This document shows, one piece after another, positions 10,078 through 37,236 of a DNA stretch of 64,000 bases. Each line of letters begins with the position of its first letter. Position 1 is the stretch's first letter. The notes beneath the pieces are model-generated. The model saw only the letters and a list, made by a program, of their open reading frames with translations. It was not told the DNA's origin and did not search any database. The DNA comes from an uncultured Candidatus Rokubacteria bacterium. Its GTDB lineage: Bacteria > Methylomirabilota > Methylomirabilia > Rokubacteriales > CSP1-6. The position numbers were made by a program, and so were the translations under genes. Where the stretch lies: assembly GCA_963789955.1 (NCBI GenBank), contig CAWBMV010000007.1, positions 1 to 64,000 of the forward strand, written 5' to 3'.

Positions 10078-10093
10078 TGCATCGCGAGTGCCA
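10078..10093 (-). promoter_or_regulatory. sigma54 -24/-12 promoter
   Basis: Minus strand TGGCAC-TCGCG-ATGCA; boxes TGGGG-N9-CCTCA and TGTGG-N8-CCCCA at 10144-10184. Confidence 0.7.
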
Positions 10094-10159
10094 ATCCGGA
10101 TCGCCGCCATTTCGAGATGTTAGCGAACACAGGTCATCCGATCTGGGGACGCCACTCCC

Positions 10160-10819
10160 TCAGGGCTGTGGCGAGCACGCCCCAGGAGGCCGAAAGCGTC
10201 CTCGCACTGGCTGGACGCTCACCGCCCCGCACATGAATATCTGACCGTCCCGTGCGAACTCGCCGAATGATGGCTTGAGTCCACGATCGAGTGCTCGCAG
10301 TGTGGGACGGCCGATGTGGGCGAAGACGAGGCGCTTGATGCCGTGGCGCTTCGCCGCCTGCGCCGTCGCCCGGACATCCAGGTGGCCACCGACTCCGCGG
10401 GCGAATCGTATGGGCCGATTCCACGCCGCCGCCTCGGCGAACATGAGGTCGGCCCCTCGAGCCCATCGAGGGAACTCATAGAATTCCGGCGCCCATACTA
10501 CCGTGATGCCGGTCCCCTTGATCTGGTAGCCGCACGTCGGATGATTGGTGTGAACCACCGAGCGGTCCACGATGTGCAGGTCGCCACGATGGAAGGGTCC
10601 CGCATACGGGATGAGCCCGCGTTGCTTTGCCATCCTCCGGATCGACGTGATGAGCTCGCTCCGCTCGTCGGTCACGAGCCACGCGTCGAGCTTGGTTCGA
10701 GGGATCGCACCCGGTCCGCCATCGATGATGACACGCACGCCGGCGTGCGCCACGAGCAGCCCGGCCGGGGCGTATCGAGGCGACGCTTGCGCCCCGACGC
10801 CGAGTGTGACGAACCGCAC
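10160..10819 (-). CDS. Metallo-beta-lactamase-fold-like protein with degenerate metal motif
   Basis: N-terminal TLGVG, IIDGG, VVHT..GY, GGH and FAHIG elements; no HxHxDH. Confidence 0.6.
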   Translation of the reverse strand: MRFVTLGVGAQASPRYAPAGLLVAHAGVRVIIDGGPGAIPRTKLDAWLVTDERSELITSIRRMAKQRGLIPYAGPFHRGDLHIVDRSVVHTNHPTCGYQIKGTGITVVWAPEFYEFPRWARGADLMFAEAAAWNRPIRFARGVGGHLDVRATAQAAKRHGIKRLVFAHIGRPTLRALDRGLKPSFGEFARDGQIFMCGAVSVQPVRGRFRPPGACSPQP

Positions 10820-10843
10820 GCGCGATCTTCTCCTCAGCGCGCC

Positions 10844-11392
10844 TTATGGAAGGCGTGGTTGGTAGCGGTCACGGTAGATCGTCCAGGACGGCTCCAGAGG
10901 GTAGACCGCGGCGCGGCGACTAGCCTCTCGTACGTCGCGCGCCCACTCCACGGCGTCGTCGAGGCTCGCCGCGATGAGCTGCCGCGCCGACTCCGACGGC
11001 CCTTCGCGGATGGCCGCCATCGCGCGGTCGACTGTCGCCGCGATACGCGGGTGGTGGATCAGCGGACGGAGGGTTTCGAGGTCCTCGAGCGCCCGCGCGT
11101 CCTCGCGTTGCCCGAGCTCGACGAGCGCCAGGTAGAGTCGCGCCTCCCCACGTCCCGGATCCTCCACGAGCACGCGGCGCAGGACGTCCTGCGCGCCGGC
11201 AAGCTCGTTGAGCTTATAGCGGGAAATCCCGAGCGCGGTGAGGGCATCGAGCCGTTTGGTGCCGGCGACGGCGGCTCTCTCGAACTCCCGCGCGGCCTCG
11301 TCATACCGGCCAGCCTGAAATGCCTCCGCGCCGCGTGAGTAGGCGGTCGCGCAGCCGCCCAGGAACCCGCCGAGCAGGAGGGCGCCGAGCAC
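10844..11392 (-). CDS. TPR-containing lipoprotein
   Basis: Hydrophobic leader with LGGC lipobox, followed by TPR-like helices; exact start uncertain. Confidence 0.7.
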   Translation of the reverse strand: MLGALLLGGFLGGCATAYSRGAEAFQAGRYDEAAREFERAAVAGTKRLDALTALGISRYKLNELAGAQDVLRRVLVEDPGRGEARLYLALVELGQREDARALEDLETLRPLIHHPRIAATVDRAMAAIREGPSESARQLIAASLDDAVEWARDVREASRRAAVYPLEPSWTIYRDRYQPRLP

Positions 11393-11538
11393 GCGCCGGC
11401 CCGCGCGCGCGAGAGGTGGCGCGGCGCGGTCGGCACCGACGTCGACGCGCCGCCGGAATGTGCTGGTCAGCGTGTCCTTCCCTTTCCTGTTCTTGCTCGT
11501 GGATCAGCCTCGATGGGTCGACCGGCAGACACGCAGAC

Positions 11539-11553
11539 GCATCAGACGTGCCA
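11539..11553 (-). promoter_or_regulatory. sigma54 -24/-12 promoter
   Basis: Minus strand TGGCAC-GTCTG-ATGC upstream of the TPR gene. Confidence 0.6.
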
Positions 11554-11603
11554 GGCGACTTCAGCTGACATCTCACAAGGCCTTCGCCCCAAGCTGGGAG
11601 AGT

Positions 11604-11619
11604 TGGCAGGGCCCCTGCA
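11604..11619 (+). promoter_or_regulatory. Possible sigma54 promoter
   Basis: TGGCAG-GGCCC-CTGCA (GG-N10-GC) just upstream of RBS and ATG 11644. Confidence 0.45.
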
Positions 11620-11643
11620 ACGTCTGACGGGGAGGGGACTCCG

Positions 11644-11979: not shown

Positions 11980-12101
11980 AAGCGCTGGTGCAGCTCCCCG
12001 TCCGACGGACATTCGAAGGCTCCCCCGCCCGGCGGCGTGCGCCAGCGAGAGAGGCGGCACTGGCGCCCCAGGTGGGGCAAGGATTCCCAAGTACCTGCGC
12101 T

Positions 12102-13436: not shown

Positions 13437-13440
13437 GAGA

Positions 13441-14595
13441 TCACGCCTGCCGACCGAGTCCCAACGACGGGCGCGAGCTCCTGAGCTCGAGCCGGTCGTT
13501 CTCGTGCAGCTCTACCCGGTAGTCGAATCGCCGGCTCTCGCGATTGATCGTGTCCCTGAGCCACGCGGCGTCTGTGCGTGAAGCACGATTCAGTCTGAAG
13601 TTTCTGATCTGCATCGGGGTGAGATAGAGCTCGAGAAGCCGGCCCGTCAGAGGGTCCACGGTCGGGAAGAACATCAGCGCGAGGTCGTCCCGGAACTCCT
13701 CGTAGCCCGTAATTCCTTCGTAGTCGTCGAGCAAGTCGCCGCACCCATAAAGAATGAGCCTTTGCTCGAATATCTCGATCGGGCGGACGTGGTGGGAGGA
13801 GTGGCCGTGGACGACGTCAACTCCCGCTCGGATGAGGCCGTGGGCGAACCGGACGTGCTCGTCCGGGACGGCGAATCCCCAGTTGCTCCCCCAGTGAAGG
13901 GACGCGACGACGATGTCGCGGGGACGCTTGATGCTCCGGACCAAATCATCGATCCCATCGATCGTGTCGTTTGACAGATCCGTCAGCAAATTCACGCCCG
14001 GCCGATCGTCTGTCGCCGCCCAGCCGGGCGGGATCCCGCTCGTCTCGGTCCCGAACCCGAGAACGATCACCCGGCCCTTGCTCGGAACCTCGATCACGGC
14101 CGGTGCCCGAGCCTCGGCGAGGTTCCGGCCCGCGCCCGCGATCCTCACGCCCGCTGTCTTCAGAGTGTCCAGCGTCTCGCGCAGACCCGCATGGCGATAG
14201 TCGAAAGCGTGGTTGTTGGCCAGGACACAACAGTCGATGGACGCGGCGGTGATGCACGGCACGTTTTCGGGATGCATCCGGTAGTGGATGCCTTTCCCTT
14301 TCCAGTAGTCATCGCTGCGAGTGATGGTTGTCTCGAAGTTCACGATCCGCGCGTCCGGCCGCCGGGTCGCGAGTTCCTGGAGCGCATCACCCCAGATGTA
14401 AGGGAAGTCCACGGGGCGCGGAATCCGGCCATTCGCCTGTTCGGCCAGCTGCACGTAGCTCTCGGCATTGCGGACGTGTGGCTCTTGAATGCGGGGATTA
14501 CCGGGATACGGAAGCACCTGATCGACGCCGCGGCCCGTCATCACGTCGCCGCCGAGGAACATCGTGAGAGCGGAGTCGATAATCGCGTCGTCCAT
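13441..14595 (-). CDS. CapA-family (poly-gamma-glutamate synthesis) metallophosphoesterase
   Basis: GGDVMTGRG, NFET, LANNHAFD, SLHWG, HGHSSHH, YGCGD motifs. Confidence 0.9.
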   Translation of the reverse strand: MDDAIIDSALTMFLGGDVMTGRGVDQVLPYPGNPRIQEPHVRNAESYVQLAEQANGRIPRPVDFPYIWGDALQELATRRPDARIVNFETTITRSDDYWKGKGIHYRMHPENVPCITAASIDCCVLANNHAFDYRHAGLRETLDTLKTAGVRIAGAGRNLAEARAPAVIEVPSKGRVIVLGFGTETSGIPPGWAATDDRPGVNLLTDLSNDTIDGIDDLVRSIKRPRDIVVASLHWGSNWGFAVPDEHVRFAHGLIRAGVDVVHGHSSHHVRPIEIFEQRLILYGCGDLLDDYEGITGYEEFRDDLALMFFPTVDPLTGRLLELYLTPMQIRNFRLNRASRTDAAWLRDTINRESRRFDYRVELHENDRLELRSSRPSLGLGRQA

Positions 14596-14631
14596 CGATG
14601 GTCCCGACTCGCCGCGAGCCTTGTCGGAGGC

Positions 14632-16653
14632 CTATTCGGCGTCGGGGACGAGATCGAGAGCGGTAAGCCAGACCGTCGCCTCGGCATCGCTCGGCGCGCG
14701 CCAGTCGCCGCGCGGCGACAGCGAGCCTCCGGAGCCGACCTTGGGCGCGTTCGGGATACAGCTTCGCTTGAACTGGCTCAGCCGGAAGAAGCGATCCAGG
14801 AAGATTCTCAGATTCGCCTTGATCTGCGCCGGCGTGTATTTCTCGCGCCACGCGCAGTGGGCAAGGAAGGCGACCTTAGTCGGCGCGTAGCCGAACCGCG
14901 ACGTGTAATACAGGTTGAAGTCTTGGAGCTCGTACGGTCCGATCACGTCTTCGGTGCCCTGGGGCGGCTGCGAGCCCGCGCCCGCTCCCGGGATCAGCTC
15001 AGGGCTGATGCGCGTCGCCAGGACCGCCGCGAGCGCCGCGCTGACCTCGGGGCCGAACTGCTCGGTCTCGGCGACCCAGCGGATCACATGTTGGATGAGC
15101 GTCTTGGGAACGCTGGCGTTGACGGCGTAGTGAGACATGTGATCGCCGACGCCGTAGGTGCACCAGCCAAGCGCCAGCTCGCTGAGGTCACCCGTGCCGA
15201 TGACCAGCGCGTCGTGGAGATTTGCGAGGCGGAACAGATGGCTCGTGCGTTCGCCCGCCTGCACGTTTTCGAACGTCACGTCGTACGCCTTCTCGCCGCG
15301 GCTCACCGGGTGTTCGATGTCCCGAAGCATCTGCGTCGCGCTCGGCCGGATGTCGAGCTCATGGGCCTCGCAGCCGATGGCTTCCATCAGCCCGTGCGCC
15401 TGCTCGAGCGTGCGCCCACCGGTGGCGAACCCGGGCATCGTGTACGCGAGAATATGGGCGCGCGGGTAGCCGAGCGTGTCCAGCGCGCGGGCGCACACGA
15501 GGAGAGCGTGAGTGGAATCGAGGCCGCCCGAGATTCCGATCACGACCCGCCGGAGCCCGGTGAATTGCAGGCGCTTGACGAGGCCCTGCGCCTGGATCTC
15601 GTAGACCTCCGCGCAGCGCTCGCCGCGCTGGGCCGGGTCCGCGGGCACGTAGGGGAACCGCGCCCATCGCCGCTCGGGCAGGAGTCGCCCGCCACGGGGC
15701 AGCTCCAGCGGAACGCCGATCGTGCGGAAGTCCTCGAGCTCGCGGTGGTGGCGCTCGATCGTCTGCCCGATGCTCGTCGTGCGCATCCGCTCCTGCTGGA
15801 GCCGCTCGAGATCGATCTCCGCGCAGACGAGCTGGGGCGTGGGGCCGAAGCGGCGAGACTCACCGATGAGATTGCCGTTCTCGGAGACGAGAGCGTGGCC
15901 GTCCCACGCGAGGTCGGTGGTCGATTCACCGGGCCCCGCGGCAGAGTAGAGATAGGCGGCGAGACATCGCGCCGACTGGCTCGCGACCAGCTGGCGCCGG
16001 TAGTCGGCCTTGGCCACGGTGACGTTGGAGGCGGAGAGATTCAAGAGGATGGTCGCGCCGGCGAGCGCGGCGTAGGTCGAGGGCGGCAGCGGCACCCACA
16101 GGTCCTCACAGATCTCGACGTGAAATGTGGCCAGAGGTTGTTCCTCGAGCTGGAAGAGCAGGCGACTGCCGAAGGGGATCCCTCCCTGGCCGCCGAGCGT
16201 GATCTCGCGCCGCAGGGCGGTGTCCGCAGGGCTGAACTGGCGTAGCTCGTAGAACTCCCGATAGTTGGGCAGATATGTCTTCGGCACGGCGCCGAGGATC
16301 CGGCCCCCGGAAAGGACGACGCCGCAGTTGTAGAGGTGATGATCGACGATCACCGGCATCCCGACGACTGCGACCAGGGGCAGGCGGGCCGAGGCGCGGA
16401 CGACTGCGACGAGCGCTGCGTGAGAAGCGTCGAGCAGGGCGCGCTGCTGGAAAAGATCCTCGCATGAGTACGCCGAGAGGCAGAGCTCCGGGAACAGGAC
16501 CGCGACCACGCGCCGTTCCGCCGCGTCTTCGAGCAAGGCGATCGCCTGCTGTGCGTTGAACGCCGGATCGGCGACCCGAACGCCGGGAATCGCCACCCCG
16601 ACCCGGATGAGGTCGTGGTTGTAGAGATTGAAGAACTCGTCCCCCGACCTCAC
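14632..16653 (-). CDS. nadE: Glutamine-dependent NAD+ synthetase
   Basis: Nitrilase domain (FPELC, ICEDLW) plus [15 protein letters not shown] and GTGDLSE. Confidence 0.95.
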
Positions 16654-16928
16654 TCGATTTTCCGCTCCTTCCGGCAGGCGATCTCACCCGGCGACGCGTG
16701 GTAGGCCTGACACTCGGGCTCACGGCCGCGCACGACGCGCCGGACGATGAGCGGCCCGTGGGTCTCGGTGACGACTGTTCGCTGGCCTTCGGGCCCCGCG
16801 TCGGTGTGGAAATAGACGACGACCCAGGCGCGGACGCGAAACGGGTTCGCCCGCTGTGCCTGGAGAATGTCCGCGGCCTCACGGAGCTTCCCGGCGATGC
16901 GCTCGTTCTGGAACGACGGCGTCGTCAC
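16650..16928 (-). pseudogene. Internally deleted HhH (PolX N-terminal-like) DNA-binding protein
   Basis: NERIAGKLREAADILQAQRANPFRVRA is joined directly to the C-terminal WVVVYF...EGQRTVVTETHGPL..RRVVRGRE segment. Confidence 0.6.
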
Positions 16929-17284
16929 CGGCGCCCGCTCCGTCGAGACGGCCGCCCGGCCCGCTCCCTGGCGACCATCTCCTGCATGAGGTGCTTGGCG
17001 CGCAGGAGCTCGGCACGACGCTTCGCGCTGAGCCCACGCCCGGCTCGGTTGATGAAGAACAGCAGCATGCGCAGGCCGGACGTGATCCCCTTCGGACTCA
17101 CGCGCGTTGACGCGAGTGTCCGCGCGATGGTCCGCGCATTCTTCGCAAACAGCCCTCGAGGTGGAGCGGTCGAGACGGTGGTAACGGTACGGACCCAGAG
17201 ACGCTTGCCCTTGCGCCGCCGCTTCGTCGGCTTTCGTACATTCCCGTGCGGTCTCGCACGGTGACTCCGCCGGGCCTGGCTCAT
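16925..17284 (-). CDS. DUF3175-family basic protein
   Basis: W..VTTVS...GLF...IARTL...MLLFFINRAGRGLS..RRAELLRAK pattern. Confidence 0.8.
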   Translation of the reverse strand: MSQARRSHRARPHGNVRKPTKRRRKGKRLWVRTVTTVSTAPPRGLFAKNARTIARTLASTRVSPKGITSGLRMLLFFINRAGRGLSAKRRAELLRAKHLMQEMVARERAGRPSRRSGRR

Positions 17285-17298
17285 ACGAGACGAATCAC

Positions 17299-17313
17299 GC
17301 AACCCGGATGCCA
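17299..17313 (-). promoter_or_regulatory. sigma54 -24/-12 promoter
   Basis: Minus strand TGGCAT-CCGGG-TTGC; TGGGG-CGATCGCT-CCCCA at 17366-17383. Confidence 0.75.
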
Positions 17314-17452
17314 CAAGCCGACATCAAGGAAAACAAGGGCTAACGCGCTGACCAAGCAGGACGGCTGGGGCGATCGCTCCCCAACTCAGAAAACGCGGGG
17401 CGCCCAGGACCCGCTCGGCGACGCGGCAACTCTTCTCGCTCTCCCTTGCACT

Positions 17453-17872
17453 TCATTTGACGAGCAGGATCGGACAGCGACAGAAGACGCCGACCTTGTA
17501 GCTGGTCGTGCCCCAGCCGGTGGCGGGGCGGCCCGGTCGCACTGTGTGCGAGCCCATGACGATCAGGTCGATCGCATCCTTGACCGCGACGCGAACAATG
17601 TCACGCGCGGGCTCGCCGATGCAAACCTCGGTATCGACTGGCACCCGCTGGGCCGCGAACCGCCGAGCGATCCGCGCAAGCTTCTCGACCGAGGCCGTCT
17701 CGAGGCGCTCGTAGAAATCGCGCAGCTCGCCGAAAGGAAGGTCGGGAACACTCTGGATCACATGCAGCAGGGTCACTCGCGCGTGCGTTTGCCGCGCGAG
17801 TGCCAGCGCGGTCCGGATCGCGCGCTGGTTCCGGTCGCTCAGATCGGTTGGCACGAGGAGGTGCTTGAACAT
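17453..17872 (-). CDS. Universal stress protein (single domain)
   Basis: MFKHLLVPTDLS...DLIVMGSH...CPILLVK. Confidence 0.9.
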   Translation of the reverse strand: MFKHLLVPTDLSDRNQRAIRTALALARQTHARVTLLHVIQSVPDLPFGELRDFYERLETASVEKLARIARRFAAQRVPVDTEVCIGEPARDIVRVAVKDAIDLIVMGSHTVRPGRPATGWGTTSYKVGVFCRCPILLVK

Positions 17873-17874
17873 GT

Positions 17875-18302
17875 TTATCCGCGCAATGGCTTCGCCCGTC
17901 CCCCGCTCGCGGTGCCTGGACGCCGGCCCGCCTCCGGGCGCGACGACCGCACCCAGGCGAGGAGCTCCTTCGCAGGCCAGGTATTGACGACGCCGGCCTT
18001 CTCGACCCGGGCCCGGCGGGCAGTCGCCGCGCCGAGCTCGATCGACGTGAGGTGATCCAACACGTGCGCATCGGTGTTGACGACGATCAAGATACTCGAG
18101 GATTTTTCCCGCGAGGTCCTTCCCCACCCCGGGGATCTCTTCGAGGCGCTCCTCGCGCGCGAGCGTCTCGACGTCCTCGGTGAGCGTCTCGAGGTTCTGG
18201 GCGGCGCGCCGGTAGGCGCGAATGCGGAACGGGTTCTCCCCCCTTGATCTCGAGGACGTCCGCCATCAGGTCGAAGAGGCGCGCGAGCTCGAAATTTTTC
18301 AT
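17875..18302 (-). pseudogene. polX: DNA polymerase X/PHP relic with a large internal deletion
   Basis: N-terminus MKNFELARLFDLMADVLEIKG..NPFRIRAYRRAA...IPGVGKDLAGKILEYL followed, in another frame, by the PHP C-terminus IVVNTDAH...ARRA...VVNTW. Confidence 0.8.
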
Positions 18303-18529
18303 CGCCCGCGCCGTCGGCCTCGGGTGATCCAGCGGTCGATCGCAAGCCATACTGCCGGGAGAACCGCCAGCACGAAGCCGTCGCGCTCCTTGACGACGAC
18401 CTTGGCAAACGCGGCCCCCGGTGTGCGGGTGACGGCGGTCTGCTCCTGCGCGGTCACCGCGCCGGCGTGGATCAAGACCTCGTACTTGGCCTGCTTTGCC
18501 CGCAGGAACTCTTCGAGCTTCGAGTACAT
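18299..18529 (-). pseudogene. YbaK/EbsC (aminoacyl-tRNA deacylase family) fragment
   Basis: YEVLIH...TAQE...AKVVVK.RDGFVLAVLPA, then truncated (76 aa). Confidence 0.65.
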
Positions 18530-18534
18530 GGCGA

Positions 18535-18945
18535 TCACCCGGCTCCGACCTCGGCCTGCGCCTCGGCCCACAACTCCTTCAGAGCCTTCGGCAGTTGGGC
18601 GAAGACGTCTTCGGCCTCGCCCGGAGCGAGGTGCTCCTTGAGCGCCGCGAAGACCGCCAGCGTCATCCAGCGCGCGTCGCGTGCGCTGCCGAGCTTCGCC
18701 TCGACCTTCTCGCGCTCGAGGAACTCCTCCCGGGTGAGCTTCATCGGCGTGCGTTCGGGCAGCTCGCCCTCTTCCCAAACCTGCTTGAGGTCGCGCGGGA
18801 GTTGGGCCAGCACCTGGTCGGCCTCGTTGGGCGTGAGGCGATCTCGCAGCGCGTGGAAGACCGCCGCCGTCGTACGCTTCGCGACGTCGCGGCTCTTCTC
18901 GCCACTCGTACCCATCACGATCCTGTAAAACGCTGCACTGCTCAT
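18535..18945 (-). CDS. DUF2267-family protein
   Basis: Internal repeat AVFHALRDRL..EADQVLAQLP / AVFAALKEHL..GEAEDVFAQLP. Confidence 0.85.
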   Translation of the reverse strand: MSSAAFYRIVMGTSGEKSRDVAKRTTAAVFHALRDRLTPNEADQVLAQLPRDLKQVWEEGELPERTPMKLTREEFLEREKVEAKLGSARDARWMTLAVFAALKEHLAPGEAEDVFAQLPKALKELWAEAQAEVGAG

Positions 18946-18969
18946 ACCGTGCTCCTCATTCCATCGCTC

Positions 18970-20424
18970 TCAGCCCTTGATGTTCCCGATCGGTGTCAGC
19001 GAGACGACCTTGCGCGAGATATCGAGACGGTCCACGACGTCCACGACCTCGCCGAGGTCCTTGTAGGCGAAGCCCGCCTCCTCCGCGACGCCCGACTTGG
19101 ACGCGGCGCGAACGACGATCCCGCGTTCTGCCATCTGCTTGAGGAGCGCCTCACCCCAGACCTGGCGCTTGGCCTGAGCACGGGACATCGTGCGTCCCGC
19201 CCCGTGCGCGGTCGAGCCGAACGTCTCCGTCATCGCGTGCACCGTGCCGACGAGAAGGGCCGAGCCGGTCTCCATCGACCCGCCGATGATCACGGGCTGG
19301 CCGACTTCTCGATAAGCCGCGGGCACGTCGGCCGCGCCGGGGCCGAACGATCGGGTCGCCCCCTTGCGGTGCACCACGAGCTCGAGCGCTTGGCCGTCGA
19401 CGACGTGGCGCTCGAGCTTGGCCGTGTTGTGGCAGACGTCGTAGATCACGCCGAGCCCGAGATCGCGTGGGTCCTTGCCGAACACGCGTCCCATCACCTC
19501 GCGCACGCGATGGGTCATCACCTGACGGTTCGCGAACGCGGCGTTGGCAGCGGCCGTCATGGCGCCGAAGTACGCCTGGCCCTCCGGCGAGCGGAACGGC
19601 GCACACGCGAGCTCGCGGTCCCGCACCGTGATGCCGTAGCCGCGCATGGCCTGGTCGAATCGCCTGAGGTAGTCGGTTCCGATCTGATGCCCGAAGCCGC
19701 GCGAGCCGCAGTGGAGCATGACGAGAATCTGGCCGGGCCGCTCGATACCGAAGGCCTTCGCCACACGCGAATCGTGGATCCCATCGTGAGGCACAACCTG
19801 GATCTCGAGGTAGTGATTGCCCGAGCCGAGCGTGCCGAGCTGGTCCCGGCCGCGGGAGACCGCGCGCTCGCTCACCTGAGCGGGATCGGCGCCTGCAAGG
19901 CAGCCGCCGCCTTCGGTCGCGTCGAGGTCTTCAGGCCAGGCGTACCCGTGCCGCAGGCACCAACGGGAACCGTCGCGCATGACTTCACCGAACTCGTCCG
20001 CGGAGAGCCGTACGAATCCCTTGGACCCCACGCCCGACGGAACCGCGTCGAAGAGCGCGTCGACGAGTTCGGTGAGCTTCGGCCGGACCTCGGCCTCGGT
20101 GAGGCTCGTTCGCAGCACCCGCATGCCGCAGTTGATGTCGAACCCGATCCCGCCGGGCGAGATGACGCCGGTGTCGGCGCGGAACGCCGCGACGCCACCG
20201 ATGGGGAACCCGTAGCCCCAGTGGCCGTCGGGCATACAGAGCGCGGCCCGCACGATCCCGGGTAGGCACGCGACGTTCGTCACCTGCTCGAACACGCCCT
20301 CGTCCATCCGGCGGAGCAGCGCCTCCGACGCGTAGATGCGCGCCGGCACCAGCATGCCCGGCTTCTCGCTCGGTGGGATCTCCCACACGCAGTCGCCGAC
20401 CGGAAGCGCCTTCATCGTCGTCAT
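18970..20424 (-). CDS. rtcB: RNA ligase RtcB
   Basis: MPDGHWGYGFPIGG, GFDINCG, GTLGSGNHYLE, HCGSRG, HNTAK, VHRKGAT, HGAGR. Confidence 0.97.
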   Translation of the reverse strand: MTTMKALPVGDCVWEIPPSEKPGMLVPARIYASEALLRRMDEGVFEQVTNVACLPGIVRAALCMPDGHWGYGFPIGGVAAFRADTGVISPGGIGFDINCGMRVLRTSLTEAEVRPKLTELVDALFDAVPSGVGSKGFVRLSADEFGEVMRDGSRWCLRHGYAWPEDLDATEGGGCLAGADPAQVSERAVSRGRDQLGTLGSGNHYLEIQVVPHDGIHDSRVAKAFGIERPGQILVMLHCGSRGFGHQIGTDYLRRFDQAMRGYGITVRDRELACAPFRSPEGQAYFGAMTAAANAAFANRQVMTHRVREVMGRVFGKDPRDLGLGVIYDVCHNTAKLERHVVDGQALELVVHRKGATRSFGPGAADVPAAYREVGQPVIIGGSMETGSALLVGTVHAMTETFGSTAHGAGRTMSRAQAKRQVWGEALLKQMAERGIVVRAASKSGVAEEAGFAYKDLGEVVDVVDRLDISRKVVSLTPIGNIKG

Positions 20425-20425
20425 C

Positions 20426-20854
20426 TCAGATGTCGATGACCACGCGCGCGCGCCAGCCTCGTTCAGACGGCTCGAGCGCGAACTGATGGAACGTCACGGC
20501 CTTGGGATCGGCGCGGAGCGCTGTGGTGGCGCGGTCGATCGGTCCCCCGACGAGCCGCGCCGACAGGCGGCAAGGTGAGCCCGCGCTCACGCGCGCCTCT
20601 ACCGCGGGGAACACGAGCTGCTCAGTGTCCTTCACGTAGATCAGCTCGGAGAGCCAGTCGTAAAGCAGGAGATCCAGCGAAGGGGCCGCGAGCTCGACTC
20701 GCCGCTCGATCGTCGTCCGGACCGTAGCCGGGTCCACCATGACCTCGGCCACCGCCCGCGCCGCCGTCGCGAAGAGATCATCGAGGTCATCCCCCTCGAT
20801 CTCCATCGCGCAATCAGCGAGAGCGACCGTCTCGAGAAACTCGTGCCGGCCCAC
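20426..20854 (-). CDS. Archease
   Basis: LLYDWLSELIY, KAVTFH and C-terminal VIDI; adjacent to rtcB. Confidence 0.9.
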   Translation of the reverse strand: MGRHEFLETVALADCAMEIEGDDLDDLFATAARAVAEVMVDPATVRTTIERRVELAAPSLDLLLYDWLSELIYVKDTEQLVFPAVEARVSAGSPCRLSARLVGGPIDRATTALRADPKAVTFHQFALEPSERGWRARVVIDI

Positions 20855-20866
20855 GGCCCCTACCCT

Positions 20867-21340
20867 CTACGCCGCCTTCACCGGGATCGCCGTGCCCTTC
20901 GCCGCCGGCGTCTTCGGCAGCTTGACCGTCAGCACGCCGTCCTTGAAGATCGCGTTCACCTTCTCGGTTTCCACACCGGCCGGGAGCGTGATGGTGCGGA
21001 CGAAGTCGCCCCACGAGCGCTCGACCCGGTGGTACTTCGCGTCTTTCTCGTCCTTCTCTTCTTTCTGCTTGTGCTTCTCCCCCTTGATGGTCAGCATGTG
21101 GTTCTCGAGCGAAACGCTGACATCCTTCTGCTCGACACCGGGGATCTCCGCCTTCACGATGAAGGCGTCCTTGGTCTCGGAGAAGTCGAGCTTAGGCGCC
21201 CAGGCGCCGGCCGCCGCGAACTCGTCCCGGCGGGGCTCGAAGAATCGGTCGAAGACCCGCTCCATGTCCTCTCGCAGCGCATCCATCCCTCTCCACGGAG
21301 CCAATGCACGCATGATGACCTCCTTCTCCATGCTCGCCAT
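20867..21340 (-). CDS. Hsp20/alpha-crystallin small heat-shock protein
   Basis: AEIPGV, LTIKGEK, ERSWGDFVRTITLP, FKDGVLTVKLPK; true start may be a few codons later. Confidence 0.95.
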   Translation of the reverse strand: MASMEKEVIMRALAPWRGMDALREDMERVFDRFFEPRRDEFAAAGAWAPKLDFSETKDAFIVKAEIPGVEQKDVSVSLENHMLTIKGEKHKQKEEKDEKDAKYHRVERSWGDFVRTITLPAGVETEKVNAIFKDGVLTVKLPKTPAAKGTAIPVKAA

Positions 21341-21504: not shown

Positions 21505-21520
21505 AGCAACAGGGGTGCCA
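21505..21520 (-). promoter_or_regulatory. sigma54 -24/-12 promoter of the hsp20-archease-rtcB unit
   Basis: Minus strand TGGCAC-CCCTG-TTGCT (consensus); TGGGG-N8-CCACA at 21583-21600. Confidence 0.8.
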
Positions 21521-22150: not shown

Positions 22151-22185
22151 TTTCGAGAGGTCTCCTGTCGGTTGAGTTCTGTCAG

Positions 22186-28045: not shown

Positions 28046-29367
28046 TCGGCCCGCGGATCTAGTCGCACGTACGCCACACCGGGGAGACCCGTCTTCACCT
28101 TCTCCACGTTCCGAGCGAGAAGATCCGGATCGATTCGCACCTTGACGCGGAACATGAGTTTCTCGCGCTCGGTGCGTGTCTCGACTTCTTTGGGAGTGAA
28201 CTGTGCGCGAGGCGCCACGAACGAGATCGCGGCCGGGATCACCAGGTACGGCGCCGCATCGAGGACGATGCGCCCCTCGGCGCCGACGATGGTGCGACCG
28301 GCCTCGTCGGTCGGCAGGAAGATCGTCATGTAGACGTCGCTCAGCTCGAGCACGGTCACCACCTTGCCGCCCGCGGGCAGCACCTCACCGGGCTCGGCCA
28401 ACCGGTACAACACACGTCCGCGGATGGGCGTGGTGAGGGTGCTATCGGCGATGTCCGTTCGGATGCGCTCGATCCGGGCGGCGGCCGCGGCGATGGCGGC
28501 TTCGCGATAGTCGACGTCGATCCGAGCCACGGTCAAGGCGGCCTCGGCCGCAGCGCGCTGCGCCTCCTGCTGCACGAGCGCGGCGTCGGCCATCTGAAGC
28601 TGGGCCTGGGCTTCCAGGAGAGCGCCCTCGGCCACCTTTGCCGCCGCGTGCTCCTGCGCGAGCGCCGCCACCGCGGTCTCGCTGCGAGTCAGATCTTCGT
28701 CGAGCTTCTGCCTCGCGATCAGGTTGCCATCGAAGAGCGACTGGGAGCGCTGCAGCTCCTTCCGCGCGAGAGCGAGCTCGCTCTCGCGCTGGGCGACCGT
28801 GGCTTGCGACTTCTCGACGCCGCTCCGGCGTTGCGCCACGGCGGCCTCGACGCGGCGGCGATCGCTCTGTCGCTGGGTGATACCGGCCAGGGCGCTCTGC
28901 ACCTCGCTCTCACGCTGCGTGATGGCAGCCACAGCGCGCCGCCTGTCCTCCCGCGCCTGCGCGGCTTGCGCTTCGGCCTCGTGCAGATCCGCCTCGACGT
29001 CACGCGTGTCCATGCTGGCGAGTAGCTGGCCGGCATCGACCATGTCCCCTTCCCTGACCGCGACGGCTGCGATCCGGCCGGGGCGCTTGGTGGCGATGTC
29101 GTACTCGGTGGCCTCGATGCGACCGTTCCCCGACGCGAAGCCGGCGGGGAGTTTGGGACCGCGAAAGCGCCCGACCACGCCCGTCGCCAGGCCCTGGACT
29201 TCCGTCGCGTACTTCACGACCAGCAGCGCGCTCAGCGCGGCGGCGACAAGTGCGACGGTGACGACGATCCATCTGGTCTGGAGTCGCACGGCAAACGGGC
29301 GTACGTCGCCTGGTGTCTTCATCCGCTGCGAAGCCCTCCCTCGGGGGATGTGCATCGTCAATGCCAT
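28009..29367 (-). CDS. HlyD-family membrane fusion protein (YhiI-like)
   Basis: [11 protein letters not shown], long coiled coil, [20 protein letters not shown]. Confidence 0.9.
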
Positions 29368-29529
29368 GGCCGGCGCACACGGTTTCTCAGCGATCTAGAC
29401 GATGCGCCGAGCCGGGACACAACCGCGCGCTAAGCAAGAGCGCGGCGTCAGTGCCTCACTTGGGGCAGCGATCTCCCAGGTCGTCCATCGCACAGTGGCC
29501 TAAGTCCCCGAACCGATTCATTCGATCGC

Positions 29530-29544
29530 TGGCACCGCGCTTGC
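29530..29544 (+). promoter_or_regulatory. sigma54 -24/-12 promoter
   Basis: TGGCAC-CGCGC-TTGC; tandem boxes CGCGG-N8-CCTCA and TGGGG-N8-TCCCA at 29441-29478. Confidence 0.8.
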
Positions 29545-29584
29545 CTCCCAGAGAGGCCGGAGGGCTGATGCGCGGATCAGGATC

Positions 29585-30908
29585 GTGGTGCTGCTGGGCG
29601 CCATGACGTTGCTGGTGGCGGCCGGGCCCGTTCCCTATCGCAAGGGCACGATTGACGCCGCCGAGCCACCCGCGTCGTTCGCGCAGGTTGCGCGAACCGC
29701 ACTGGCCGCGTCGATCATCGTACGCGGTCCCGAATACGCAGGCGGAGCTACCGAGCCGCAAGGCTCCGATCTCGCCTTCGGCGAGCTCGGAATCGCGAGC
29801 GCACGCCGTGCGCTGGGCGCAGGCGTGATCGTCGATCCCCGTGGGTTCGCTCTGGTCAGCGCGCGCGCCGTCGGTCGTGCACCTCGACTGGAGGTTGCGC
29901 TCCTCGACGGAACCCAACTAAAAGCTGACGTCGTGGGAGTCGATTTGCGTACCGACATCGCGGTCTTGCGACTCCATAGCGACGCACTCCTCTCGTACCT
30001 GGCCTTCGCCGATGCCGATCGTGTCCGAGCTGGAGACTGGATTGTCGCCGTCGGCGCGCCCTGGGGTCTGGAAGGAACGGTCACCGCCGGCATCATCACT
30101 GCCGTACCCAAACCGGGAGGCGCGAATCCCCTAACGAGCTTCCTTCAGACCGATGCGGCGCTCGGTCACGCGTTCGTGGGCGGCCCACTCGTCGCGATGA
30201 GCGGCGAGCTCGTGGGTCTGGCCACTCCACTCGGCGGCGGAGGAATCGGTTACGCGCTACCGGCGGCGACCGTCCGCAAGGTCTACGTCGAATTGCTCGA
30301 GAAGGGCCGAGTAAGCCGGCCATGGCTGGGCGCGATCACGCAACAGCTCAGCGCCGACCTCGCGCGCGCGTTCGACGCACGCAGCGCACAGGGTGTCCTC
30401 ATCGCCGATGTGCTCCCCGAAAGCCCGGCCGCCGGCGCAGGCCTCCGATCGGGCGACGTGGTCCTGGAGATCAACGGGCGCGCGGCATCATCGCGCGCTC
30501 AGCTCGAAAGGACCGTGAGTCTCCTGTCACCAGGAGCCAGCATTCGACTCAAGGTCCGTCGTGCAGCACGTGACGTCGTCGTTTCAGTCAGACTGGGAGA
30601 GGAGCCGGTCGAGTGGGAGGTGCGCCCCGATCTGATCAAAGCCAGGCGCTTGCTGGGCATCGATGTCCGTCCCGTCACGCCCTGCGATGGGTGCAGTGGT
30701 GGTGGACGTCGACGCCGACAGTCCCGCCGATCTCATGGGCATCGAGCCTGGTGACGTCGTCCGTGGGATCGATCGCAAGCCCGTCCGCAACATAGCAGAT
30801 TTTCAAACGATCGTTCGGCACATTCAGGGCGGCAGCGACGTCTTGGTGCTGGTGCAACGCGCCGACGTCGCCGTCTACGTGATCATACCCGCACGTCCGG
30901 ATCCGTAG
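29585..30908 (+). CDS. HtrA/DegP-like trypsin + 2 PDZ protein lacking catalytic His and Ser (copy 2; frameshift near 30683)
   Basis: Paralog of 12102-13436 along its length; VSARAV and AFVGGP; C-terminus lies in ORF 30663-30908. Confidence 0.85.
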
Positions 30909-31115: not shown

Positions 31116-31131
31116 GATGCGTGACGGTCGT

Positions 31132-31588: not shown

Positions 31589-33495
31589 GTGGTCTCGCCC
31601 GATCGCAACCAGGCGCCAGTGGCGACGGTCAGCCGTCAGGTGTTCCCTTCGCTATTGACGGCGGGCCGCGGCCAGCGTCGCCTCGCCCTGATCGTCACGC
31701 TGTCCTCCGCCACAATCTTTCTCGCGGTCGTGCCGTTCGCGAAGACCCCGTTACCGCAGATCTGGGCGTTCATTCCGGTCTACGAGTCGGTACTGGTCGT
31801 CAACGACCTGATCACGGCCGTTCTGCTACTCGGTCAGTTCAGCTTCTTGCGATCCGCGTCGCTGCTGATCCTGGCGATGGGGTACCTGTTCACGGCGCTC
31901 ATCACGATCTCACACGGGCTGACGTTTCCCGGGCTCTTCCGCCCGTCCGGCCTGCTCGGGGCGGGGCCGCAGAGCACCGCGTGGTTGTACATGCTATGGC
32001 ACGCCGGCTTTCCTCTGTTCGTCATCGCCTATGCCGCGCTGAAGGCCGGCGGGCGCACGATTTCTCGCCGGCTTGCCATTCCCGCTGCCGTCGCGGCGGT
32101 GGTCGGGCTGGTGAGCAGCCTCACGCTCGTTGCGACCGTCGGCCAGGCGCTGCTTCCGGCGATCATGGAGGCCAATCACTACGCGCCCGCGATGTCCACG
32201 GTCGTCTCCGCAACCTGGCTGCTGAGCCTGCTGGCGGTCGCGACCATCTGGCGGCGGCGCCCGCACACGGTGCTCGACCTGTGGCTCATGGTGGTGATGT
32301 CCGCGTGGGTCTTCGACATCGCCCTCTCCGCAGTCCTCAATGCAGGCCGATTCGATCTGGGATTCTACGCCGGTCGGATCTATGGCCTCAGCGCGGCGAG
32401 CTTCGTGTTGACTGTCCTAATGGTCGAGAACGGCAAGCTCTACGCTCGGCTCGTCGAGATGCACGAGCGGACACGACAATTGTCCCTCGAGCACGAAGAG
32501 CGACAACAGCGGCGAGTCACGGCGATCGTCGACAGCTCGGATGATGCCATCATCGGCGAAGACCTCGACGGCGTCATCACCTCGTGGAATCCGGCCGCCG
32601 CGCGAATGTTCGGCTACCACGCCGACGAGGCGATCGGCCGCGCCATCACGCTCATCGTTCCGCCCGAGCGAATGGACGAGGAAGAAGCGGTCTTGAGCCG
32701 ATTGCGGCGCGGAGAGCACATCGATCACTTCGAGACGGTCCGCCGCACCAAGGACGGACAACTCATCGACGTCGTCCTGACGATCGCGCCCCTGCGAGAC
32801 CTCAACGGCAAGGTGTTCGGCGCGTCCAAGATCGCCCGCGATATCACCGAGCGCAGGCAGACGCAAGAGGCATTGCGTCTGAGCGAAGCAACGGCCCTTG
32901 CCTTCATTGCGTCGGCGGCCGAAGGGATACTGATCATCGACGAAGCAGGCCGCACCGTCATCGCCAACGGCCAGATCGAGAAGATGTTCGGCTACGAGCA
33001 GAGCGAGCTGGTCGGTCGGCCGATGGAAGCGCTGCTGCCGGAACGGCTGCGTGAGCGACACATCGCGCATCGCGCCGAGTACGCGGCGGAGCCGCGTGTC
33101 CGACGAATGGGACGAGGGCTCGATCTCGCGGGCCGCCGCCGCGACGGCACGGAATTCCCCGTCGAGATCAGTTTGAGCTACGTGCGTACGCCGCGCGGGG
33201 TTCGAGTGATGGCGTTCGTCACCGATATCACGGAGCGGCTCGTGCGCGAGCGTAGTGCGCGCCGGGCCGACAAGCTTGCGCTGCTGGGCACGCTGTCAGC
33301 GGGGATTGCGCACGAGCTCAACAATCCGCTCGGCATCATCAAGGGCCGGATCGAGTTGATCCTCCTCGAGGACGAGGACGAGACGCTGCCGCCGGCGGTT
33401 CGTGAGGATCTCGGCGTCATCCACCATCACGTCGAGCGAGTCATACGCCTCGTGCACGGTCTCTTGTCCTACGCCCGCCCCTCGGAAGGGGAGCG
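31589..33495 (+). pseudogene. MASE4-like membrane domain-PAS-PAS-HisKA sensor kinase, truncated before the HATPase domain
   Basis: TM domain, two PAS domains, AHELNNPL; after LLSYARPS no N/G/F boxes follow in any frame and regulatory DNA begins. Confidence 0.75.
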
Positions 33496-33640
33496 TGGTA
33501 GCCGAGCCGTCGTCGCCCGCCCGGTCCCCTGTCCCACACTGACGCCGCGGCGCGACCAGGCGAGGCGGTCGCTCCCCAGGTGTCGCCAAAACTCCGTCGG
33601 CACAAGCGATGTAAGCGGGCGATTCGATTCGTTTTCGCCG

Positions 33641-33656
33641 TGGCGGGCTCCTTGCA
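33641..33656 (+). promoter_or_regulatory. sigma54 -24/-12 promoter
   Basis: TGGCGG-GCTCC-TTGCA; box CGAGG-N8-CCCCA at 33561-33578. Confidence 0.65.
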
Positions 33657-33669
33657 CTCTCCATCGGGC

Positions 33670-34092: not shown

Positions 34093-34197
34093 ACGCGTCT
34101 GAGCAACGCACGAGGTTTGCCGGCATGCCCGGACGGCCACTACGAAGCCCGCCGGCGAACCGGATGACTCCGGTCACGCATTCGGGGATCACGGACC

Positions 34198-36661
34198 ATG
34201 CAGACTGACGCTGATCACGGGCTGAGTCGCGCGGAAGCGGAGCGGCGCCTTGTCATCGAGGGGCCGAATGTCGCTGCCGGGCGCTCAACGACGCGGGCCG
34301 ATCGCTATCGCGCTCGGCGTGCTCGCCGAGCCGATGTTTCTTCTGCTCGTCGCGGGCGCGATCATCTACCTGATGCTGGGAGACATCCACGAAGCGCTGG
34401 TGCTCGTGGCTTCGCTCCTCGTGGTGTCGACGATCGCCGTCGTGCAGGAGCGCAAGTCCGCGCGAGCGCTCGAGGCCTTGCAAGAGCTTGCGAGCCCGCG
34501 CGCGCTCGTGGTCCGCGAGGGCATCCCGATCAGGATCGCCGGCGCCGAAGTCGTGCGCGGTGATCTGGTCGTCGTGTCCGAAGGCGACCGCGTGCCCGCC
34601 GACGTGCGGATCGTCGTGGCCAACGATCTCTTGCTCGACGAATCGCTGCTCACCGGCGAGTCGCTGCCTGTCGAGAAACAACCCGGCGAGACGAGCTACT
34701 CCGGGACGCTGGTCGTGAAGGGTCGGGGCCGCGGTGTCGTGGTCGCGTCGGGCCCCCGCACGGAGTTCGGTCGCATCGGCCGTTCCCTCGTCGATCTCGA
34801 TATCGAGCGCACCCATCTTCAGCGTGAAACCACGCGCATCGTGCGGCTCATCGCCATGTTCGGAATCGGCGCCTGCATCGTGCTCGCCGTCTATTCGGCG
34901 GTTGCGTTCGGTGACTGGCTCACCGGTGTGCTGGCCGGCATCACGCTGGCGATGGCGATCTTGCCGGAGGAGTTTCCGCTGATCCTCACGGTGTTTCTCG
35001 CGCTCGGGGCCTGGCGCATCGCCCGGCGCGGAGTGCTGACTCGCCACATGCCGGCGATCGAGACGCTCGGCGCCGCCACCGTCTTGTGCGTGGACAAGAC
35101 CGGAACACTCACCGAGAACCGAATGGTGCTCGTCGACACCTTCACCACGACCACGACTCCACAGCACGTCGTCGAAGCCGCCGCCCTCGCCTGCGAGCTC
35201 GATCCGTTCGATCCGATGGAGCGCGCAATCCTGGCAGCGGCGGGCTCGTCCGCTGAAACGCTTCGAGCGAAGTGGCTCCTGGAGCGCGACTACCCGCTGA
35301 CGTCAGATTTCCTCGCGGTGTGCCACGCCTGGCGCGCGCCCACCGGCGAGCGCCGTATCGTCATCAAGGGCGCGCCGGAGACGGTGCTCCGGTTGTGCGG
35401 GCTCGACGCGGGGGCGATGGAGGGTGCGCTGGAGGAGGCTCACCGGGCCACGGCGAAAGGCCAGCGACTGCTCGCGGTGGCGGAGACGACCTGGGACGAC
35501 GCGCACTGGCTCGACGACCCGCGCCGGTACCGGTTCACGTGGCTCGGATACGTCGCGCTGGCCGATCCGCTGCGCGCCGACGTGCCCGAGGCGATCGCCC
35601 AGTGCCGGGCCGCCGGCGTTCGCGTCGTCATGATCACCGGCGACTATCCAGGCACCGCCCTCGCCATCGCGCGCCAAGCGGGGATCTCGACGGAGGGCGG
35701 CGCGCTGGTCGGCACCGAGATTTCCGCCATGGACGGTCCAGGCCTCGCGCAGGCGGTGCGCCGGGTGGACGTCTTCGCGCGTATCAGGCCAGAACAGAAG
35801 CTTCAGCTGATCACGGCTTACAAGATGGCTGGTGACGTGGTCGCCATGACCGGCGATGGCGTCAACGACGCTCCCGCACTGAAGGCGGCGAACATCGGCA
35901 TCGCGATGGGCCGACGCGGGACGGACGTCGCACGCGAAGCCGCTGCGCTCGTGCTGGTCGACGACGACTTCCAGTCGATCGTCGCCGCCATGACGCTGGG
36001 TCGGCGAATCTACGAGAACATTCGCAATGCGATGCGCTATTTGCTCGCGGTCCACGTGCCGATCGTCGGGATGGCGTTCCTGCCGTTGATGTTGGGCTGG
36101 CCCGTGCTCCTCTACCCGGTCCACATCGTATTCCTCGAGTTCGTGATCGATCCCGCGTGTTCGCTCGTGTTCGAAGCCGAACCGACCGGCGCCGCCGTGT
36201 TGCGCCGCCCCCCGCGCGATCCCCAACAGCGACTCTTCAGCTCGCAGATGATCGCGGTGAGCCTCTTGCTCGGCCTCTCGGTGCTCACGACCATCTTCGT
36301 CGCCTGCTGGTGGGGCATCGCGCAGCACCTGTCGAGCGGCGCGATCCGCTCGCTGGGCTTCGCGGCGCTGGTGTTCGGAAATCTCACGATGATCCACGCC
36401 ACACGATCACGCGACCGCCTGATCGTTCAGAGCCTCCGCGCTTCGAACCCGGTCGTCTGGTGGATCACCGGCGCCACGCTCGCCGCGCTGGTCATCGCGG
36501 TCTATGTGCCAGCGGTCGCCGCCGTGTTCCGATTCGCGCCGCTCACACCGAGCTCGCTGGCCATCGCCGCCGCCGCCGGGACTGCGGGCGCCCTGTGGTA
36601 TGAGGTGTACAAGCTGGCGCGCCCGCGCCGTGCTCACCATGCGCCTGGCCATTCCCGGTAA
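34198..36661 (+). CDS. Cation-transporting P-type ATPase (type II; frameshift near 34275)
   Basis: LTGES, PEEFP, DKTGTLT, KGAPE, MITGD, GDGVNDAPAL. Confidence 0.95.
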
Positions 36662-36719
36662 GGTCTGACGGAAGGCGGCGTCGCCGTCAGCTGCAGGAAG
36701 TCGATCTAGGTAAGGATCT

Positions 36720-36872
36720 TCAGCGAGCGAGGATCGCGAGCAGCAGGGCAAGCACGACAATACACGCCGCGACGAACGCCAGGAACTTCCAGAGCGACTC
36801 CCGGACGCCATGAACCCGAGATCCGAGCACCAGCATGACGATCAGGAGCAGGCACGCGATCAAAGCTGTCAC
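36720..36872 (-). CDS. Small two-TM membrane protein (50 aa), not in the ORF track
   Basis: GGGGAG RBS, GTG start, MTALIACLLLIVMLVLGSRVHGVRESLWKFLAFVAACIVVLALLLAILAR*. Confidence 0.6.
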   Translation of the reverse strand: MTALIACLLLIVMLVLGSRVHGVRESLWKFLAFVAACIVVLALLLAILAR

Positions 36873-37017
36873 GTTGTTCTTAGCTCCCCATCTGCAACTC
36901 GGTCACCTCGAGTGGCGGCCCCGCGGAAACGACTCGAGAATCGCACGCGTACTTTGGTCCCGTGGATCGGAAAAGTCAGAGCGACGACAAGGTTGCTCAC
37001 CTCCACGTCGAGGTGTC

Positions 37018-37033
37018 TGCATGCATGGTGCCG
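37018..37033 (-). promoter_or_regulatory. Possible sigma54 promoter
   Basis: Minus strand CGGCAC-CATGC-ATGCA; tandem boxes at 37132-37169. Confidence 0.5.
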
Positions 37034-37236
37034 GGGCCGGTCTGCGAGGGGCTCGGACCGAAGGCCCCGTCGCGGCGCGGGCTTACGCCGAGCGCGGCGC
37101 TGCTCGGCGCGGCGGGTCCGGCTTCGTGGTTTGGGGCGCGGTCGTCCCGAGTGAGGACATGGGTACCCAGGTTCAGCACCGCGAATGGCTCCGGAGAAGC
37201 CCGAAAAAGGCCTTGAGCCCGTGTGGAGAGCTGCGA

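Follow-up and report, generated by a model that had tools for sequence, protein, structure and literature searches.

A sigma-54 enhancer regulon and its candidate activator in an uncultured Rokubacteria bacterium

Introduction

In the DNA analysed here, the first 64 000 nucleotides (the window) of contig CAWBMV010000007.1 from an uncultured Candidatus Rokubacteria bacterium (assembly GCA_963789955.1), elements resembling the -24/-12 promoters of sigma-54 RNA polymerase face a series of stress-type genes between about 10 and 37 kb, and palindrome-like boxes lie upstream of most of them. A sequence-only reading of this region had proposed that one activator co-ordinates the whole set through a shared TGGGG-N8-CCCCA enhancer. 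The locus thus raises the question of whether box and promoter form a regulatory unit and, if they do, which protein reads the box and in answer to what signal. That a sigma-54 enhancer regulon is real, and that a candidate activator can be identified, is well supported by the sequence comparisons reported below; the candidate is encoded on another contig, C10. Taken as a whole, the reading that this one activator acts through the box as its enhancer, under a low-oxygen-type trigger, is in our judgement probable. The mechanism itself would be textbook sigma-54 activation; the site and its wiring are apparently undescribed.

The source genome (G000) has 6.77 Mb in 38 contigs, about 68% G+C, and is 87% complete; the window is the first 64 kb of its contig C7, and C10, C34, C37 and similar labels denote its other contigs. 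It encodes one rpoN and about 30 sigma-54 activators. Most named homologues of the window's regulators come from Rokubacteria/Methylomirabilota, which points to that lineage. Frameshifts are common among its genes, the AAA domain being split in four of 30 activators, and paralogous blocks are common to C7, C10 and C34. Some contig ends overlap others at 86–96% identity (C7 right with C28 and C29, C10 left with C37, C2 with C36), which suggests a strain mixture in the assembly.

An 18-bp box in register with sigma-54 promoters

The literal palindrome was rejected as the motif. Exact 5+8+5 matches number four in 6.77 Mb, one of them in the window, and the 8-bp spacer shows no enrichment over spacers of 4–14 bp; a weight matrix was used instead. 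What holds of the original proposal is a shared box paired with sigma-54 promoters, the motif being broader than the pattern first written down. A symmetric matrix derived from 13 box sites in the window (window-trained) was used to scan G000 minus the window, and a second, rebuilt from 89 box sites in related genomes (relatives-trained), underlies the scores of window sites, the Markov simulation, the per-activator test, the tandem spacing and the box of locus L155 given below. For the promoters, a matrix was written by hand after the sigma-54 consensus.

In the relatives-trained matrix the box is a degenerate, even dyad of 18 bp carrying about 14.7 bits. In each arm G is nearly invariant at positions 2 and 4 (98–99%) and prevails at position 5 (85%), C prevails at position 6 (82%), position 1 takes T (72%) or C, and positions 3 and 7 take G or A (with C at position 7 in 6%). 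The four bases at the centre are almost unconstrained. Taken alone, the box is only about twofold denser in non-coding DNA (41.6 against 21.6 per Mb), so the signal is the geometry of box plus promoter.

The spacing bias expected of an enhancer is found outside the window: with the window-trained matrix, 20 of the 29 pairs within 320 bp have the box 50–96 bp upstream, and these held-out pairs are stepped near 52, 63, 73, 84 and 93 bp. Among G000 promoters of at least 12 bits, a box lies 45–105 bp upstream of 7/9 on C7 (a count that includes the training set), 11/16 on C10 and 4/255 elsewhere; the corresponding downstream control gives 0/280. Between 9.6 and 37.3 kb of the window, six box-bearing promoters pass both thresholds, compared with a mean of 0.01 and a maximum of one in 100 Markov simulations, so that the pairing noted earlier is beyond chance.

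Conservation in relatives was also borne out. In the activator neighbourhoods of ten genomes nearly all pairs have the box 50–104 bp upstream; the neighbourhoods of G020 and G022 hold no box/promoter pair. In a wider species collection we considered the best 80 of 551 confirmed activator loci, some of which are on the same contigs as the ten-genome set. Here 90 of 117 pairs fall at 45–105 bp (about 11 expected if uniform), the best period of the distances is about 10.3 bp, and 44 of these 80 best loci have at least one pair in that range. Most of the box-bearing loci carry the label Methylomirabilota; Binatia, delta-proteobacteria and Gemmatimonadota also occur. Four Rokubacteria-like loci of 67–71% G+C (L089, L091, L092 and L112) are labelled Nitrosotalea, Deferrimicrobiaceae, Verrucomicrobiia and Acidoferrum, and are probably misbinned contigs rather than transfers. 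In the record of Desulfosporosinus nitroreducens (L155:7434–18009), a cultured strain holding a relative of the system, a 49% identical activator and a GAF kinase come before divergent sigma-54 promoters that share a weak, AT-centred version of the box (10871–10888, 3.9 bits) and face genes for ABC, Rieske/cytochrome b and nitrous oxide reductase proteins.

Boxes are frequently doubled. A second site of at least 5 bits is present at 43 of 74 promoters, and all 43 start 19–22 bp from the first. Between box and promoter there are AT-rich patches (-29 to -27 and -19 to -16, counted from the -24 element), which would suit a DNA bend.

Could these be chance GC-rich palindromes, or duplicated copies of one promoter cassette? 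The twofold enrichment of the lone box in non-coding DNA and the paralogous blocks of C7, C10 and C34 speak for such an origin. Against it, the geometry is fixed before unrelated genes in several families and phyla, the DNA from box to promoter is unconserved beyond the AT patches, and the simulations give at most one pair where six are observed. The explanation is refuted by the held-out tests, and its probability is negligible. Box and promoters are almost certainly functional as a set.

A candidate activator encoded on contig C10

The candidate reader of the box is a REC-AAA-HTH8 protein with an intact GAFTGA motif, encoded at about 46.3–47.8 kb of C10. Its gene is paired with that of a membrane PAS kinase, in the middle of a cluster of stress and metabolic genes for universal stress proteins (Usp), CBS and BON proteins, Hsp20, GroEL, Lon, P-type ATPases, pyruvate dehydrogenase, acetate kinase and phosphate acetyltransferase. 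All seven promoters within 10 kb of this activator gene carry the box, compared with none of 45 around the other 29 activators of G000.

A helix–turn–helix (HTH) of the C10 type, at E 1e-25 or better, occurs in 24 of 41 genomes; the match in G001 (7e-13) was counted as negative, and G032, drawn with the negatives, as positive after the HTH search. Box presence in relatives was judged at activator neighbourhoods and at the 60 best-scoring Usp loci from 40 genomes (two overlap). At the Usp loci the box accompanies 18/23 promoters in activator-positive and 0/11 in activator-negative genomes, and eight of the box-positive loci are on contigs other than the activator's; activator-positive genomes also have a median of 16 Usp matches, negative ones of 6. 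The type of recognition helix matters as well, box-promoters being present at 33/40 and 9/14 loci with the two commonest types and at 2/26 with others, again among the best 80 of 551. A single activator is thereby favoured, the box being confined to one of 30 activator loci and to activator-carrying genomes, and held-out recurrence, helical phasing and tandem sites agree with one activator and one enhancer for the gene set.

The protein scores below the NCBIfam curated cut-offs of AtoC, NtrC, ZraR, GlrR, NtrX, RtcR and the PEP-CTERM regulator (best AtoC score 459–464 bits, cut-off 714), and an atlas search with its HTH returned generic HTH_8 clusters only. Another sigma-54 activator might read the box instead, either the window's own frameshifted REC-AAA-HTH8 protein (48393–49776, minus strand), which lies near the region, or RtcR, at which the sequence-only reading hinted from rtcB and which would suit the RtcB-archease genes among the targets. 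The window's own activator is present in all 13 same-genus genomes without a C10-type activator, and the scanned Usp loci of these have zero box-promoters; it was not found in 11 of 13 genomes of family f4, several of which have boxes, and no sigma-54 site of 12 bits lies within 10 kb of it, so that it was rejected as the cognate regulator. RtcR has no family match in G000 (87% complete), although the control matched in Escherichia coli. On these comparisons the idea of another activator appears already largely refuted, and we give it scarcely any credence.

The C10 protein, then, very probably reads the box, which we propose to be the upstream activating sequence of this one NtrC-type sigma-54 activator. 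Its dimers would occupy paired boxes along the same face of the DNA; once phosphorylated, it would oligomerize and contact the sigma-54 polymerase across a short bend. Some 25–30 operons for stress and dormancy would be switched on in this way, of which the window holds eight or nine. The window region is best explained as an accessory block read in trans by the C10 activator.

Kinases, target genes and the likely signal

The phosphate may come from the adjacent kinases, the membrane-bound PAS kinase and a soluble one with a FixL-like PAS domain whose gene is divergent from the kinase–activator pair; such a source would in turn point to a fall in oxygen or redox state as the trigger. The best structure matches of the latter PAS domain are the heme-PAS domains of FG214, FixL and DosP (for FixL and FG214, PDB 8js5, 1dp6 and 10jx; E 2e-19 to 7e-16), and it keeps the position of the proximal His156 of FG214 together with His159 and Met172. 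The window holds the remains of a related protein, a truncated MASE4-PAS-PAS kinase in which a FixL-like PAS domain and DHp (32867–33463, plus strand) are retained and no catalytic domain was seen; the PAS domain is 61% identical to that of the C10 kinase and has the same heme-ligand His. The three kinases, that of the window and the two of C10, share a DHp group (130, 92 and 75 bits versus 47 or less), which suggests that they signal to a shared partner. Across the best 80 of 551 activator loci a heme-PAS domain is found in 24, the His aligning in all 24.

The first gene after a box-promoter encodes a Usp in 30 of 72 cases, and others encode receivers, Hsp20, GNAT, CBS proteins, GroEL and citrate synthase; the tally covers the 72 of 74 promoters that gave an open reading frame (ORF), 11 of them without a family, and the set is biased towards activator neighbours. 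The target set overall (Usp, Hsp20, CBS, BON, P-type ATPase, acetate kinase, phosphate acetyltransferase, cytochrome c, RtcB) overlaps the lxa and DosR hypoxia sets. These are indeed stress-type genes, as the sequence-only reading had it; what they indicate is low oxygen or dormancy, not generic stress. By analogy, we lean slightly towards oxygen or redox state as the trigger.

The same activator and box could answer a non-oxygen signal. In that case the membrane kinase, which is co-transcribed with the activator, would sense heat, energy or envelope stress, the heme-PAS kinase being an optional addition. The membrane kinase is found in 16 of the best 80 of 551 loci, 10 of 24 activator-positive genomes are without a close heme-PAS match, Hsp20, GroEL, Lon and HtrA are among the targets and, in the available parts of two reports, the sigma-54 activator DVU3305 of Desulfovibrio runs a general-stress Usp/Lon regulon (PMC3333781, PMC4641369). 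Set against this are the heme-PAS domains of 24 of those best 80 loci with His in every one, the shared DHp group, and the acetate kinase, phosphate acetyltransferase, BON, CBS and cytochrome c genes that are typical of hypoxia sets. We regard a non-oxygen signal as rather unlikely.

Several points weigh against the reading of a C10 activator under low-oxygen control. The activator gene of G000 itself is frameshifted, and the protein may be inactive; the gene is intact in most relatives, and an assembly error is favoured because the AAA domains of four of 30 activators are split and orthologues are intact elsewhere. Seven of the 40 loci with an identical recognition helix have no box-promoter. 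Co-occurrence cannot separate the activator from co-inherited island genes, the related genomes are non-independent samples, and the sites of the relatives-trained matrix were chosen via the window-trained one, so that results from it are not fully independent. As to the signal, the position of the distal His175 of FG214 is Gly in the C10 kinase, and what we take to be the distal Arg of FixL aligns to Leu; a close heme-PAS homologue is present in 14/24 activator-positive and 2/17 negative genomes; and the Hsp20, GroEL, Lon and HtrA targets would equally fit heat or proteotoxic stress.

Promoters and boxes in the window

All ten -24/-12-like elements of the sequence-only reading, and its boxes, are present where it placed them (for minus-strand promoters it gives the left edge). 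Eight can be retained as members of the regulon; the two at 11538–11553(-) and 11604–11619(+), the latter before a frameshifted small ORF, have no box of at least 4 bits within 20–130 bp and their membership is unsupported. The box distances had been given correctly to within 1 bp except at 10093(-). Helical phasing holds, with more classes than the two clusters one turn apart that had been described, namely about 52, 63, 73, 83 and 93–98 bp. Gaps below run from box to -24 element, with boxes located by the relatives-trained matrix.

The leftmost promoter, 10078–10093(-), scores 15.4 bits and precedes a 65-residue ORF, a hydrolase-like ORF (assigned by eye, no Pfam match) and a tandem Usp (7920–8870, minus strand; PF00582) that is a predicted target. 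Its strong box (10167–10184, 15.2 bits) is at 73 bp and a weak partner (about 10145–10162, 5.4 bits) at 51 bp. Overlapping the leader of this promoter on the minus strand is a short frame (about 9900–10050) that by eye resembles what we take to be the C-terminus of a phosphoenolpyruvate-utilizing enzyme. Downstream of the Usp operon, positions 1–7900 hold a gene of GH94/glucoamylase type (cyclic glucan synthase-like); it is frameshifted, and C15 and C22 carry paralogues of it.

Tandem boxes at 12053–12090 (11.1 and 8.8 bits) before HtrA copy 1 had been counted with the promoter set. There is no sigma-54 site in range of either (12053 or 12073), and these orphans are probably a decayed copy of the control region of HtrA copy 2; the two htrA copies are 70% identical.

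Two single-box promoters follow on the minus strand. That at 17298–17313 (13.1 bits with the generic matrix, 18.9 with the relatives-trained one) has its box at 17366–17383 (16.1 bits, 52 bp), the sole exact match to the literal pattern in the window, and faces a predicted operon of DUF3175, a PolX N-terminal remnant, NAD synthase and CapA/PGA_cap (13441–17101, minus strand; Pfam and ORF inspection). That at 21505–21520 (16.4 bits) has its box at 21583–21600 (16.9 bits, 62 bp), a weak partner at 21602 (5.4 bits, 81 bp) and, downstream, the predicted hsp20-archease-rtcB operon, which continues with DUF2267, small ORFs and a Usp (17453–21340, minus strand; Pfam).

Divergent promoters share boxes at two places. 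Weak tandem boxes at 22820–22857 (7.5 and 7.7 bits) are common to 22750–22765(-), a 17.6-bit element before Zn-dehydrogenase remnants and cytochrome c, and to the imperfect 22909–22924(+), of 11.8 bits, before a tandem Usp ending at 23818; the gaps, 54 and 74 bp to the former and 51 and 71 bp to the latter, are in the correct phase, and 7.5 bits is reached by 1.0% of 18 613 non-coding 61-bp windows. At 29441–29478 two boxes 20 bp apart (13.3 and 12.3 bits, starting at 29441 and 29461) serve 29530–29545(+), a 13.6-bit element with gaps of 51 and 71 bp before HtrA copy 2 (29585–30754), and a strong promoter absent from the sequence-only reading, 29351–29366(-), of 15.3 bits with gaps of 74 and 94 bp, which faces an HlyD plus ABC-2 transporter operon (24165–29289, minus strand; Pfam) as predicted target.

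Further right, the box at 33561–33578 (13.9 bits) lies inside the read-through tail of the truncated kinase ORF, 62 bp from the 12.6-bit element 33641–33656(+), which faces genes for a single-domain receiver and, up to 36661, a P-type ATPase. The last promoter, 37018–37033(-), is weak (9.3 bits) and precedes a hydrophobic ORF of 47 residues; its box, with a weak partner 20 bp further out (37132–37169, 14.6 and 4.6 bits), is at 98 bp. Boxes at exactly 98 bp also occur in loci L122, L128 and L211; in L122 and L128 the recognition helix is of the Ile variant.

The regulon reaches far outside the window: of the 29 promoters predicted with the relatives-trained matrix, 16 are on C10. Inside the regulated cluster, C10:20920–25292 carries acyl-CoA ligase, pyruvate dehydrogenase E1/E2, acyl carrier and OsmC-like genes, near a fusion of archaeal-type fructose-bisphosphatase and archaeal-type S-adenosylmethionine synthetase. 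In loci L124, L129, L131 and L138 a box-promoter precedes a sigma-54 activator gene, a hint of a cascade or autoregulation.

The accessory region

Synteny with G011, G013 and G014 ends at about 37230, by a tRNA-Gly(CCC) gene (37274–37348, minus strand) at the edge of the accessory region, and the block from 7.9 to 37.2 kb has 67% G+C, compared with 70–71% on both flanks, and several gene remnants. The 3' half of tRNA-Gly (37273–37319 of the window) recurs perfectly over 47 bp at C37:514013–514059, an att-like copy that adjoins further genes of regulon type (DUF2267-like and phosphoribosyltransferase-like, by eye). There is no integrase near either end, and site-specific integration at tRNA-Gly is unsupported, as the flanks in relatives do not join the two copy sites. 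A cytochrome c segment at 21768–22175 is 94% identical to G011 DNA just past tRNA-Gly, far above other island DNA, and is possibly a remnant of the state before insertion. Adjacency of C7 and C10 was considered and rejected, their counterparts being about 65 kb apart on one G011 contig and not contiguous. Outside the block, positions 53430–61389 hold an ArsR regulator gene and then a group-4 hydrogenase-like operon (hyf/hyc-type), with no box-promoter in front; the arrangement is similar in kind to the Rv0081–Rv0088 genes mentioned for the DosR regulon.

Implications

The analysis yields a testable activator, its site, a candidate sensor and a list of about 25–30 target operons for a stress or low-oxygen programme. 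If the broader picture of a DosR-like dormancy programme given below is true, the box-plus-promoter signature would mark uncultured soil lineages able to enter low-oxygen dormancy. In the literature searched we found no regulon studies for this uncultured soil lineage and no description of the box motif or the regulon; the motif figures and supplements of three partly available papers (PMC4641369, PMC3333781, PMC12316311) lay outside this comparison and might affect how new the motif is. The analysis also suggests that the wiring of a single set of dormancy genes (Usp, small heat-shock protein, CBS, RtcB, cation ATPase) differs between phyla, the regulator being DosR, Fnr/FixK, NmpR or the present activator.

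Comparison with known systems

DosS and DosT of Mycobacterium tuberculosis sense through GAF-bound heme. The cognate regulator DosR (DevR), according to the available text of two reports, recognizes 18-bp palindromes in adjacent tandem and helical phasing, and its regulon includes Usp, alpha-crystallin and RtcB (PMC3177182, PMC5309233); a cation ATPase target is a further likeness. Since the Dev boxes also have G-rich arms and the regulon contents overlap, and since G000 has ten GerE-type and seven Crp-type matches, a DosR/NarL-type (or Crp/Fnr-type) regulator might bind the box, with the sigma-54 elements served otherwise. DosR, however, is a NarL-type regulator with boxes 33–34 bp from the start site and an essential C7 (PMC3177182, PMC5309233), whereas here, where start sites are predicted only, boxes lie at least 50 bp upstream of the -24 element and position 7 is C in only 6% (G5 is kept at 85%). 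None of the GerE-type or Crp-type matches is on C7 or C10, and the box tracks the sigma-54 activator. A regulator of this kind is thus very improbable.

The lxa locus of Burkholderia cenocepacia is alike in being a clustered accessory set with several Usp, a small heat-shock protein, a cation ATPase, acetate kinase, phosphate acetyltransferase and cytochromes. It differs in that its motif is of Fnr/Anr type, with 4-bp arms around a 6-bp spacer, and its candidate regulators belong to the Crp family; the available portion of the report gives no sigma-54 link (PMC3721108). DVU3305 of Desulfovibrio vulgaris, in the available parts of two reports, is a two-component sigma-54 activator of UspA-domain genes plus a protease, a likeness by description and not by motif; that general-stress regulon is small and local (PMC3333781, PMC4641369). 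The C10 PAS domain shares the proximal His with the heme-PAS sensors and, with FG214 as the accessible part of the source describes it, the H159 and M172 positions (bioRxiv 10.64898/2026.03.15.711900). The partner of FixL is FixJ, and FG214 acts as a one-component regulator, whereas the C10 kinase adjoins a sigma-54 activator.

The closest parallel in operation may be NmpRSTU of Myxococcus xanthus, a hypoxia-induced system in which, as the available sections of two papers describe it, a heme sensor kinase relays to a sigma-54 activator (PMC11841059, PMC6211767). Both have an NtrC-like activator with paired dyad sites upstream of sigma-54 promoters (PMC11841059), a heme-type sensor kinase (here a predicted heme-PAS) and Usp, CBS and P-type ATPase targets (PMC11841059, PMC6211767). 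NmpU senses through a protoglobin within a relay of four proteins, with the hybrid kinase NmpS, and the sites of NmpR measure 15 bp, have a 5-bp spacer and lie 14–15 bp apart (PMC11841059); here the C10 kinases are of PAS type, the sole protoglobin of G000 is on C22, not C10, and the box is an even dyad of 18 bp with sites 1–4 bp apart (compared by eye). No cbb3 oxidase, hemN or hemerythrin is among the annotated targets here, and the regulon is larger and more chaperone-rich than that of NmpR. Membership of NmpRSTU was rejected, as both sensor type and site layout differ; the present system likely works like it, with a different sensor and motif.

The features of an NtrC-type enhancer regulon are present here: facing -24/-12 elements, rpoN, dyad sites that are usually paired and mostly within about 100 bp, and a REC-AAA(GAFTGA)-HTH8 activator linked to the sites. 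A broader picture, which we put forward tentatively, is that Rokubacteria and some neighbours may run a DosR-like dormancy programme through a FixL-type heme-PAS kinase and a sigma-54 activator reading a Dev-box-like tandem 18-mer, with blocks of targets gained as accessory islands and plugged in in trans.

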